Shown here: piece by piece, positions 12,001-15,000 of the stretch
Layout of the letters: the number at the start of each line of letters is the position of its first letter
Position numbering within the stretch: the stretch's first letter is position 1
Assembly (NCBI GenBank): GCA_027071355.1
Contig: JALSUJ010000410.1
Coordinates: 984 to 24,983 of the forward strand
Length of the DNA stretch: 24,000 nt
Reading direction: 5' to 3'
DNA from: Gammaproteobacteria bacterium
GTDB taxonomy: Bacteria > Pseudomonadota > Gammaproteobacteria > GRL18
Position numbers: made by a program

Positions 12001-15000
12001 TATACGCAGCTTCTTCCAGTTCTCCATTCGTACATATGATACCTCTATAACACATAGACTAGATAAGTTATTATGCTATAATAACCCACATTTCGTACAG
12101 TGTACGATATCTAGCCCATGCAGGAAACATACGAACAAATCATTCAGCAAATCAAAGAGGTATTAATGTCACCAGGCGGTGAACTGGAGACGGCCTGTAT
12201 TCGCTGGATACAGGAAAGGGTTAGAAATGAGAAGGCGGCCCACGTTGAGGTTATTGACGTGGGTTACGATTGCTCAAGCTTCGGGAAAACAACGAACGAT
12301 AAAATAGATCCAACAGCATTTCAGACCATCCAGAACTTTCTGGACTATCCAACCGGACAATCTATTCCAACATTCCTTTCTGGTTCAGGTATGATGACAG
12401 AGACCTACGAGGAACCCTTTGTAGAGTTTATCCGCGACTCTATAGAGAACTGGCTGACTCGGCAGGGATACGGCCCAGTCATTCGAGATCAGAATGGTAC
12501 TGTCGATGATGATTTTGCAGACATGCTGTGTGATTCCGATGCTAGTGAGTATGCGTTTTCAAACCATATCGCAAATAAGCCTTTCCCCAGAATACAGGGG
12601 GTGTCATGCTGACCGGTATCCGTCTCAAAGCCCATCCTACGCTGGAACAAAAAAAGGTGTTATCGCAATGGATGGGCTGTGCAAAGACTATCTGGAACGC
12701 TAAATGTGAGGACGAGCGTTACCATACCCGCTTTGCTCGCAAGTATTACCCTGTTGGCACCTATGCGCCTGTCGATCAGAGTTTTGCCCAATACAAACAC
12801 CCTGAACTCACGCCCTGGTTATCGGATTGCCCAAGCCAGATATTGCGAAACAGCGCGGGGAACTGGTACAAAACCTATCGAAAATTCATCAAAGGGGATT
12901 GCGGCAAGCCCAGGCGAAAACGCTTTGATGATATTGGCAGCATTCACTTAACCCGTGAGCTCTTTGCGTTTATTGTCGGCGAAGATGGCGTTGAGCGTTT
13001 ATTCGTAGGGTCAAAAACCAACAACATTGGCTTTCTGTCGATCAAGAATCACGGTAAGTACAACAAGCCGAAATCCATCTACATCAGACGGCAGAATGGT
13101 CACTATACCGTGTCGTTTTGTTATGACAACGGTGAAGACGCCGCTTTGATATCAGATAACAAGGAGCATCTCGATTATCTGCGTGGTGCGAGCGAAAAAT
13201 ACCTGTCAGCGCATGTGCTCGGTGTTGATCGAGGGGTTGCCAGACCGGTGCAGGCAGGTGATAAGAATTATGACTTCAGCAAACAGCAAAAAGCCAGGCA
13301 AAAGAAAAAGGCGGCGTGTATCAAAAGCCAGCAGAGGCGGCTTGCAAGACAGGTAAAAGGCTCAAGGCGACGTAGCAGAACCCGACAGACGATCAGCAAG
13401 GCCCACAATAAGATAGCCAATATCCGCAATGACTTTTGTCATCAAACCAGTCGAAAGCTGATTGATCTATCAGGTACAAAGGTTATCGTTTTTGAGGATT
13501 TACGAACCCGGTCGATGACACGCAAACCCAAACCCAGGCAAAACAGTGAAACAGGCCGATTTGAGAAAAACCATGCCAGCCAGAAAGCCGGCTTAAACAA
13601 AGCGATCCTCAACATTGGCTGGCACAAACTGGAAGTCTACACACAATACAAAGCCCATCGAGCAGGCAAAGCTTTCTTTAAAGTGCCTGCGCATCACACC
13701 AGCCAGGAATGTGCAGCTTGCGGCCACATTCACCCCGAGAACCGACAAACCCAGGAAGCGTTTGTTTGCCGGTCTTGTGGCAACGAAGATAATGCTGACA
13801 GAAATGCCAGCCTGGTGATCAAAAAGCGAGCAATCGAGTTAATCAAATACCCTGGAACGGGGTTGTCCAGGCGCGGTGTGCTGCGCCGGGATACAGGGCG
13901 AGGAGCCAGGCATCAGACATCCAGAGCGAAAGCTTTGCATGCAGCGGGCAATGAGTCGTCAAAAAAGAAGAGAAACACAGCTAAAGCTGTGTAGTACCTG
14001 AAGCTCGCTGGCTTTAGTCGCGAGTAGTTCACACTACGCCACAGGGAGTTAGTACAGCTTAAAAAGCGTGCTGAATACTTGTGGTGACTCCTGCCCCTGG
14101 CAGGAAAAGCGGGTCATTCGACCCATTTTTTAAACCCCCGCACGGGTAAGACTTCCCGTTGGGGGATGCCTGTCTGTGTGGGATTTTTGCCCGTTAGGGC
14201 AGGAGATTATCATGAGGAATGATATTGTTGTGTTACCTTATTTTTATACGGATCGTACTGACATCAGTGCAATGATGGACACTAAGGCGTTTCTGCCGTA
14301 TGTAACTTATCGGATAAGCAGAAACTGCTCGAAGAGAAGGTTAAGAAGTACGTAAAAGCCATAAAAGGCTTCATGGATCGGGTGGGTTTTTACCCACCCA
14401 CTTATCAGAGGGCCATGAAGCACTACAGAAAGTAGCGCTTCAAGACTCTGTATTAAGTCCTCACCCGGCAATTTTGCCGGGTGAGGAAGCAATTTAGCTT
14501 GACAACCTGCCTTAAACGTCCAATAATTACCCTGTCTGACCAAGACCGTGGTAGCTCGCCACGCAAAACAAAAAGTATCTTCCTGGTCACAGGGTAACCG
14601 GTGACCAACACAATCCGATACCACCCGGTAGGCATTGCCTCTACCGTCGATGACGTATCTTTTCTATTTCCCAGTATTACGACGACAACACCAGTTTATT
14701 TTGGCCGATCGCTTGCGGGCGCTCGACCAAAATGAATTTATTGTCTCATCTGAGGCGACTTGTCCTATCAAGGTTAAAAAAGGGGTCTTTTGACGGTTTT
14801 TCCTAAGAAAACTATTTCATAGAGAGTTAAGTACAGCTTAAAAAGCGTGCTTGGATATTTATGAAAATTTAAACGCCTATTGGCAACAAGAGCACATAAA
14901 TTCTGTTTGTGTGCATTTAAACCCTATAGGGGGATACGTCCCCTTATGGGGATTGATCTCCTTATTATTTTTGCCCACCAGGGCAGGAGATCAAGATGAA

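Follow-up and report, generated by a model that had tools for sequence, protein, structure and literature searches.

A two-hairpin leader module as candidate translational attenuator in an operon related to those of MOBH-type conjugative elements

The window analysed here, a stretch of 24,000 nucleotides from contig JALSUJ010000410.1 of a Gammaproteobacteria bacterium, carries on its + strand the genes of a DHH-like protein, a PD-(D/E)XK nuclease, DUF3150, CobT/VWA, an AAA_5 ATPase and a Toprim primase; it contains neither bet nor exo. This study concerns four leaders within that region, those of the DUF3150 and primase genes and of two small open reading frames (ORFs), orf68 and orf48, in each of which an upstream segment is complementary to the region of the Shine-Dalgarno (SD) sequence. 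The operon region is split by an IS200/IS605 insertion sequence (IS) and followed by restriction-modification cargo. The + strand genes between about 100 and 17,900 correspond to the long operon of MOBH-type conjugative elements that is driven by a master activator, extending from s089 in SXT and from vcrx087 to the primase in IncC. In both of these the block is a long operon under control of the AcaCD/SetCD promoters Pvcrx087 and Ps089 (PMC7498323, PMC4344509), and in IncC it includes the host-defence-evasion (hde) genes vcrx089-093, whose operon is polycistronic (PMC7498323). By homology to these elements (PMC7498323, PMC4344509), we infer that the window genes would be located on one polycistronic mRNA transcribed from a master-activator promoter.

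The gene order is syntenic with that of metagenomic contigs or contigs of metagenome-assembled genomes (L001-L011), of the Geoalkalibacter plasmid pGSUB1 and of IncC plasmids, which together, IncC included, constitute the relatives (L001-L013) used in this work and whose DUF3150 proteins are between 51% and 28% identical to that of the window. Neither near nor distant searches of PLSDB revealed a DNA relative of the window, and a scan of a genome collection with the DUF3150 protein found no relative. A preliminary description of the locus had assigned the helices to four backbone genes, which is appropriate for DUF3150 and primase, the only conserved backbone genes among the four, and inappropriate for orf68 and orf48, element-specific small ORFs for which no homologue was found in any of the relatives fetched.

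Paired hairpins in four leaders

In the orf68 leader, TTGATCTCC at 14953-14961 is the exact reverse complement of GGAGATCAA at 14986-14994, which is followed by the ATG at 14996. The same upstream arm is located opposite GGAGGTCAA in the orf48 leader (16205-16213 and 16236-16244), with a single U·G pair at 16209/16240. Ahead of DUF3150, GATCTCCA (6135-6142) is placed opposite TGGAGCTC (6150-6157) with one U·C mismatch (6137/6155), as part of a helix that reaches 6133-6142 / 6150-6159, and in the primase leader TCTCCTG (16430-16436) is found opposite CAGGAGA (16516-16522). These pairings, including the G-U pair of the orf48 helix, had been read correctly in the preliminary description, and they go beyond chance. 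All four helices are contained in the minimum free energy (MFE) folds of the leaders, with z-scores relative to dinucleotide shuffles of -6.4 (orf68), -5.8 (orf48), -3.9 (DUF3150) and -5.2 (primase), and shuffling of the upstream arm alone yielded an equally stable fold in 0/200 cases for orf68, 1/200 for orf48 and 0/200 for DUF3150. Here and below, energies are nearest-neighbour predictions on arbitrary sequence windows. In the MFE folds, the 'twin CCC-N-GGGGAT hairpins' that were described as directly preceding the upstream arm form a single GC hairpin of 11-13 bp (H1), and the helix between the anti-SD arm and the SD (H2) begins 1 nt later; the twins are the two halves of one structure. The features of the four leaders are listed below.

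6106-6131, + strand: H1 of the DUF3150 leader (MFE fold, H1 scan), with the pseudo-SD GGGGATCA at 6112-6119
6133-6159, + strand: H2 of the DUF3150 leader, consisting of the arm 6133-6142, a U-rich loop and the SD arm 6150-6159; gene at 6164-7204
14922-14951, + strand: H1 of the orf68 leader, a 13-bp GC hairpin (MFE fold, H1 scan), whose G-run and loop at about 14926-14935 form the pseudo-SD strand
14953-14961, + strand: anti-SD arm TTGATCTCC of the orf68 leader; both the MFE and the centroid fold pair it with 14986-14994
14973-14984, + strand: nested hairpin GCCC-ACCA-GGGC in the loop of the orf68 H2, directly 5' of the SD (repeat families D7/D10, fold)
14986-14994, + strand: SD arm GGAGATCAA of orf68 (sequence, fold, opening cost); ORF at 14996-15202
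16178-16203, + strand: H1 of the orf48 leader (MFE fold, H1 scan)
16205-16244, + strand: H2 of the orf48 leader, with anti-SD arm 16205-16213, nested hairpin 16223-16234 and SD arm 16236-16244; ORF at 16245-16391
16391-16422, + strand: H1' of the primase leader, starting at the orf48 stop codon (16389-16391), with the pseudo-SD UCAGGGGAUCCG at 16397-16408 (fold)
16426-16437, + strand: anti-SD strand of the primase leader with the core TCTCCTG, whose predicted partner is the SD (OFF state, see below) or 16397-16408 (ON state)
16446-16509, + strand: long inner hairpin of the primase leader, which joins the anti-SD arm to the SD and shows compensatory changes in L001 and L004
16516-16522, + strand: SD arm CAGGAGA of the primase gene at 16528-17661 (sequence, fold)

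Three of the window leaders contain the invariant 14-mer GGGGATTGATCTCC, and their upstream arms are thus identical, whereas their H1 stems and SD arms differ. The proposal that the helices were conserved by compensatory change at the four genes did not hold within the window: the three identical arms belong to paralogous copies, the variation is confined to the partner strand (A-U, G·U, C·U), the primase helix is formed in a different register, and there is no true compensatory double change.

Conservation of the module in relatives

At the level of sequence, the evidence for compensatory change comes from the relatives and not from inside the window. H1 and H2 precede the DUF3150 orthologues in ten out of ten relatives examined, including IncC, with arms that differ between them, and the complementarity is thus maintained in homologues. 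The anti-SD and SD arms of DUF3150 leaders are the following.

Window: UUGAUCUCCA / UGGAGCUCAA
L001: GGAAUCUCU / GGAGAUUCC
L004: GUUUUCUC / GAGAAAAC
L006: CUCCUU / AAGGAG
L011: ACCUCC / GGAGGU
IncC: GGUGCGCC.. / ..GGAGUGCAUC

Similarly, L001, L004, pGSUB1 and IncC have conserved the design of the primase leader, where the anti-SD arm is separated from the SD by a long covarying hairpin, and among 69 distinct primase leaders taken from other genomes, 40 show this long-range arrangement as well, in both cases with differing arms. In an RNAalifold analysis of four primase leaders, in which pGSUB1 was misaligned, the inner hairpin alone was recovered. The same anatomy of H1 and H2 is encountered ahead of ssb, bet, exo and vcrx089 of IncC and of ssb, RecT and exo of L008. 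A scan of 50 kb of IncC identified about 20 intergenic H1 hairpins, each located 26-36 nt before a start codon and all within the operon from vcrx087 to the primase; the tra operons in the same 50 kb contained none.

For a quantitative assessment, we have assembled 69 H1-associated leaders from the window and its relatives. Since their H2 registers could not be aligned by MAFFT, permutation tests in which partners are swapped took the place of counting pairs on an alignment; the leaders of L008-L011 are mutually related, so that the leaders are not independent and the swap tests are conservative. Between the end of H1 and the ATG, at least 4 of 6 SD nucleotides are masked in 90% of the leaders with a mean z of -2.64, and 64% of the leaders individually rank among the best 5% of their arm shuffles. 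Duplexes between an arm and its cognate SD have a mean energy of -12.3 kcal/mol compared to -8.6 kcal/mol for permuted partners, a difference that was reached in 0/20,000 permutations and in 0/5,000 if permutation was restricted to the same locus. The pairing probability of the SD in a 70-nt context did not set the leaders apart from controls in which everything upstream had been shuffled (0.68 vs 0.64). The C-rich sequence of H1 pairs with any SD even after shuffling, which is why shuffles of the arm alone were adopted. The sense strand gives the better H2 fold in 51 leaders and the antisense strand in 16 (p = 2e-7), and H2 contains twice as many G·U pairs in the sense strand, which argues for a structure that acts in the sense RNA rather than as a DNA palindrome. 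Searches with Rfam covariance models gave no relevant match in the window at E <= 1 and none at the gathering score in the IncC region, L001 and L008. Collectively, the sequence comparison supports the notion that the helices mask the SD and that they have been kept in homologues through changes on both arms.

Alternative pairing and the proposed mechanism

The energetic consequences of H2 are reflected in the cost of unpairing positions -15 to +3 of a leader. This opening cost amounts to 18-22 kcal/mol for orf68, 12-14 kcal/mol for orf48, 7-8 kcal/mol for DUF3150 and 3-9 kcal/mol for primase, with corresponding values of 3-5 kcal/mol for window genes that do not contain the module and 8-11 kcal/mol for bet of IncC.

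Besides the SD, the anti-SD arm has a second potential partner in the preceding hairpin. Its pairing with the 5' arm and loop of its own H1 has a mean energy of -11.5 kcal/mol, compared to -7.65 kcal/mol for non-cognate H1s from the same locus (0/5,000 permutations), and on average three nucleotides of the H1 loop join in; control segments show hardly any cognate advantage. In the modelled duplexes, each anti-SD arm matches the G-run and loop of the H1 in its own leader, termed pseudo-SD, just as well as it matches its own SD, a relationship that is newly observed in this study. Examples of such pairs are GGGGAUCA with UGAUCUCC in the DUF3150 leader of the window and GGGCGCAUC with GGUGCGCC in the vcrx089 leader of IncC. 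The module would consequently be able to adopt two states, an OFF state where H1 and H2 are both formed and an ON state where the anti-SD arm is paired with the pseudo-SD, the 3' arm of H1 (the second of the 'twins') folds as a mini-hairpin and the SD is free. The predicted ON state is located 1.0 kcal/mol above the OFF state for primase and 2.8 kcal/mol for DUF3150, where it contains an alternative helix of 8 bp (6112-6119 : 6134-6141). In 68 leaders, the mean opening cost is 10.6 kcal/mol without H1, 10.3 kcal/mol with a non-cognate H1 and 8.0 kcal/mol with the cognate H1; blocking the first 6 nt of H1 lowers it to 7.6 kcal/mol in the non-cognate and 5.3 kcal/mol in the cognate case. Blocking of the first 5-7 nt of H1 relieves the SD, whereas no relief is obtained if 11 nt or the whole 5' arm are blocked, because the pseudo-SD is then covered as well.

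The base of H1 coincides with a preferred position of stop codons. H1 follows a stop triplet at a distance of 0-1 nt in 42 of the 69 leaders, which, in light of a background of 10-12%, corresponds to a six-fold enrichment, and in the window the stop codon of orf48 adjoins H1' of the primase leader. In the vcrx089 and DUF3150 leaders of IncC (L013/L014), a UAG next to H1 (1089-1091 and 5924-5926 in L013 coordinates) closes frames that carry no annotation and stay open for 46-50 codons across the region of D2, a repeated motif described below. These frames could be due to chance or they could be unrecognised leader ORFs that would supply a terminating ribosome.

Based on these models, we consider it fairly probable that the four helices act in cis, at the level of the mRNA, as attenuators of translation whose module flips between the OFF and the ON state, and we propose that de-repression is coupled to termination. 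The two-hairpin module occupies nearly every operon spacer of at least 55 nt. In this module, H1, a GC hairpin of 26-30 nt with the pattern CCC-n-GGGG / loop / CCCC-n-GGG that often begins at the upstream stop codon, is followed after about 1-5 nt by H2, whose C/U-rich arm is predicted to pair with the SD and the adjacent spacer and often also with the start codon, which is located about 30-35 nt past H1. H2 would make 30S binding more costly by about 7-20 kcal/mol and would in this way cause a low protein level despite high transcription. Given the established geometry of the ribosomal helicase, a ribosome placed on the adjoining stop codon would open about the first 5-7 nt of H1 and thus favour the ON state. 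The resulting process would be a translational coupling through an RNA relay, where termination at the upstream cistron de-represses the downstream one. In the window, such coupling would apply most directly to the transition from orf48 to primase, whereas the leaders of DUF3150, orf68 and orf48 would act as constitutive dampers or be opened by some further factor. Among the triggers named in the preliminary description, coupling to upstream events would in this model fit the anatomy best. More tentatively, and in our view doubtful, about 20 modules per element might constitute an operon-wide relay across MOBH elements, clinical IncC plasmids and SXT among them, where translation of each cistron would depend on the preceding termination or a dedicated opener. 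If correct, such a relay would imply that proteins for anti-defence, recombination and replication appear in a cascade, either timed or all-or-none, once the element has entered a new host.

Several observations speak against termination-coupled attenuation or qualify it. In the orf68 leader, the ON state (with the alternative pairing 14926-14935 : 14956-14965) is located 8.1 kcal/mol above the OFF state, and the ensemble probability of the OFF helix of primase varies between 0.01 and 0.77 with the sequence context that is folded. The drop in opening cost upon blocking the base of H1 is with 2.7 kcal/mol the same for non-cognate H1s, which indicates that part of the effect is a generic pairing of G-runs with C/U-runs and that cognate specificity resides in the absolute costs only. 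The ungapped sequence identity between pseudo-SD and SD is only weakly above control. An annotated upstream stop is found 0-3 nt from H1 in just 14 of the 69 leaders, that of primase among them, and no upstream ORF precedes the DUF3150, orf68 and orf48 leaders, three of the four in the window, so that termination coupling cannot be general. Finally, the H1 set was selected by folding of the + strand, which biases a strand test of H1 and leaves that of H2 unaffected.

Some of these observations would equally suit modules that are constitutive dampers only, where H2 fixes a low translation of a potentially harmful nuclease, recombinase, primase and ATPase and H1 serves as an independent stabiliser or insulator, without regulated opening. 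We regard this as a rather unlikely account of the data: the opening costs are indeed high and insensitive to temperature, an adjoining upstream ORF is absent at most leaders and whichever H1 is used, blocking its base produces the energetic drop, but constitutive damping leaves unexplained why the loop and G-run of H1 co-vary with their own anti-SD arm and why stop triplets are enriched six-fold next to H1. It appears improbable that the SD would be freed by a factor acting in trans, either an RNA-binding protein, such as a CsrA-like protein, or a small RNA (sRNA), encoded by the element or the host, that binds H1 or the anti-SD arm. Such a factor could account for the identity of the 14-mer GGGGATTGATCTCC in three leaders with different H1 stems and SD arms, and the presence of three CsrA-like proteins downstream of primase in L001-L003 and of GGA motifs in the SD and at the apex of H1 (latter in three window leaders) would be in line with it. 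However, the apex GGA is lacking in the primase leaders of L001 and L004, no CsrA homologue is annotated in the IncC region examined, and CsrA is unlikely as a general opener, since there is no homologue in the window. An sRNA is similarly disfavoured, as the complement GGAGATCAATCCCC has no second copy in the window and as arms that differ at every gene could not all be served by the same molecule.

Unlike attenuation, an origin at the DNA level would render the complementarity to the SD incidental, with the repeats serving as substrates for single-strand annealing (SSA) by Bet/Exo, comparable to rptI-IV of IncC, or as palindromic protein sites. Conserved intergenic repeats with palindromes are indeed used for SSA repair in IncC (Roy et al. 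2020, PMC7498323) and copies of the window leaders are 77-98% identical over 60-130 nt, but every gene has arms of its own, which co-vary with the SD flank they face, folding is better for the sense strand, where the G·U pairs are located, and the geometry is tied to start codons, with H1 located 30-35 nt before the ATG, all of which makes this origin very unlikely. Repeats for SSA repair may account for the likeness among the long upstream modules, though not for the gene-specific and strand-specific helices, and for the longer upstream repeats the two roles are not mutually exclusive. Least credible of all is an RNA thermometer or a terminator/attenuator formed by GGGGATTGATCTCC and a T-run. 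Some MOBH plasmids transfer in a temperature-dependent manner, and a temperature trigger had been considered in the preliminary description, but in predictions the SD stays paired from 20 to 60-70 °C, with P(SD paired) >=0.9 at 20-60 °C for orf68, orf48 and primase, well past the physiological range of about 25-42 °C in which a thermometer would melt, and the thermometer was thus dismissed. A pattern scan marks 14948-14961 and 6128-6141 as terminator-like. The respective hairpin was discarded as a stem of 5 bp with a G·U pair, which is absent from the MFE folds, where it is outcompeted by the much more stable H1 and H2, and neither this hairpin nor the U-run is conserved in orthologues.

Further leader features and relation to known attenuators

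Outside the four leaders, the + strand of the window contains additional hairpins and a repeated motif.

2093-2115, + strand: H1 upstream of the PD-(D/E)XK nuclease gene at 2155-3027 (H1 scan)
6041-6075, + strand: D2 motif, located upstream of H1, a hairpin N4-TA(A/G)CTGN-N4' followed by CAAAACAAnCAGCA
14135-14165, + strand: H1-like hairpin upstream of orf47 at 14212-14355 (H1 scan)

The hairpin following H1 of the PD-(D/E)XK gene covers the SD only partly and is not significant (z = -0.35). A small hairpin GCCC-N4-GGGC (or GCTC/GGGC, TGCC/GGCA) is placed directly 5' of AGGAG at 545-556, 14190-14201, 14973-14984, 15292-15303 and 16223-16234; two of these five are nested in the loop of an H2, and the other three have no anti-SD arm.

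D2 is present in six copies in the window (2026-2060, 5827-5861, 6041-6075, 9182-9216, 14548-14582 and 16114-16148) and in about 35 more in L001-L013, each on the strand of the gene. Its 7-nt loop is conserved, whereas the stem covaries freely (GTAG/CTAC, GTGG/CCAC, AAGG/CCTT, TTGG/CCAA, GCGA/TCGC), with 94% of the cells of the alignment paired and 49 double-change cells compared to 13.5 in shuffles (0/500). On its 3' side the hairpin has the sequence YCAAAtAAnCAGCA, and on its 5' side there is usually a further small hairpin. In IncC, copies are located upstream of vcrx089, DUF3150 and a third gene; the orf68 leader does not contain the D2 hairpin. The motif is not in Rfam. An assignment as AcaCD/SetCD box was rejected, since the box recognised by AcaCD reads TGCCCAAAWAGGGCA...CAG and the AcaCD promoters that have been mapped are found at other positions, and sigma-54 or extracytoplasmic function (ECF) promoters were rejected by eye. 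With its loop UAGCUGR and the subsequent CAGCA, D2 is a possible factor-binding, processing or nut-like antitermination signal. Three long leaders open with a 10-bp inverted repeat TTTTGGYCGA-N14-TCGACCAAAA (5977-6010, 14699-14732, 16050-16083; 0.02 expected by chance), possibly as an operator or with a structural role; this repeat was not encountered in the relatives, where the matching place is occupied by TATAAA(T).

The long leaders also carry candidate transcription signals and traces of rearrangement. A near-consensus sigma-70 promoter-like site (TTGACA-17-AATAAT, 11/12 matches) is located at 14499-14527, just 5' of the D2 copy at 14548, and a strong terminator-like hairpin followed by TATAAA is found at 5736-5763, ahead of the paralogous copy at 5827; their sequence suggests internal transcription units that start with long leaders. 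The segments 5824-5950 and 14545-14671 are 98% identical over 127 nt and 5972-6074 and 16045-16147 are 92% identical over 103 nt, a similarity that far exceeds that of the genes around them and would fit a recent duplication or gene conversion; in IncC, similar repeats serve Bet/Exo repair. The IS200/IS605 element in 11430-14100 (tnpA 11571-12035, - strand; tnpB 12606-13994, + strand) is inserted right after a leader-type small hairpin. The orf68 leader (14737-14870) contains two stretches, of about 70 and about 35 nt, that share 76-84% identity with the IS flanks 11458-11525 and 14045-14080, and this leader would thus appear to carry either a miniature IS derivative or an uninterrupted paralogue of the IS target site. 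Within the CobT/VWA gene, 7867-8208 comprises five tandem copies of a 57-nt unit (87-95% identical) encoding an in-frame 19-aa repeat, and the adjacent genes at 3577-4242 and 4359-5012 are paralogues of 221 and 217 aa (DNA up to 74% identical over 164 nt) that correspond to a single gene in L001-L003. At the position where the closest relatives encode the CsrA-like proteins (18967-20509 in L001, also in L002 and L003), the window contains an IS (tnpB 18140-19342, - strand) and a BsuBI/PstI-type restriction-modification pair (21492-23868, - strand).

The window helices are probable further cases of the translational attenuators known from SXT and IncC. An attenuator upstream of bet of SXT is experimentally described in the part of PMC4542580 that summarises Garriss, Poulin-Laprade & Burrus 2013, where low translation despite high transcription is shown for that gene only, and a structure that sequesters the ribosome-binding site (RBS) has been predicted for vcrx089 of IncC (Roy et al. 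2020, PMC7498323). These elements share with the window the operon type (ssb / bet / exo / AAA_5 / DUF3150 / VWA / primase) and the principle of RBS masking, and the IncC leaders of bet, exo, ssb, vcrx089 and DUF3150 show the same anatomy of H1 and H2. In contrast, their proteins are 31-51% identical to those of the window, with no similarity in the DNA, and the window attenuators are located at other genes than bet of SXT and vcrx089 of IncC, namely at DUF3150, primase and two small accessory ORFs. The operon-wide repetition, a role of H1 and the pseudo-SD alternative are not described in the sources found, in a search that did not extend to the primary SXT paper from 2013.

RBS masking is thus not a peculiarity of bet but a stereotyped, evolutionarily maintained module at most cistrons that extends to elements of about 30% identity. 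This is of relevance, as IncC and SXT/R391 are major carriers of multidrug resistance and as the homologous IncC region holds the hde genes, with functions in anti-restriction, as SSB and in the Bet/Exo repair of CRISPR cuts. The module accounts for the repeated leader sequences of the window, and the model would predict low or conditional expression of DUF3150, primase and the two small ORFs. It is concrete enough to be tested by mutation of the pseudo-SD, the anti-SD arm, the SD and the position of the stop codon.

A relation also exists to the repeats rptI-IV of IncC, conserved intergenic sequences used by Bet/Exo for annealing repair (PMC7498323), which, like the leaders, recur between genes of the same plasmid region and contain palindromes, but which have been described as DNA substrates for Bet/Exo annealing rather than as elements of RNA. 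Overlap with rptI-IV is probable for the repeated leader modules ahead of vcrx089 and DUF3150.

Alternative pairings of three or four segments that set the access to an SD are also found in ermC/cat attenuation, in the anti-antisense mechanism of rpoS-DsrA and in ROSE/fourU thermometers. The window module differs from these by the absence of a leader peptide with a stalling signal, as found in ermC/cat, by the absence of an identified sRNA, which distinguishes it from rpoS-DsrA, and by perfect, GC-rich helices in place of the weak pairs of ROSE/fourU elements. Closest to the coupling that we infer for the window are repY-repZ of IncIalpha/IncB and tap-repA of IncFII plasmids, where translation and termination of a leader peptide refold the mRNA and expose a masked downstream SD. 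In both cases termination of an upstream ORF beside a structured region would free the SD. However, whereas the plasmid systems rely on a single leader peptide dedicated to this purpose and on an antisense RNA, to which IncIalpha adds a pseudoknot, it would here be the stop codon of an ordinary cistron that acts on a module repeated about 20 times per operon.

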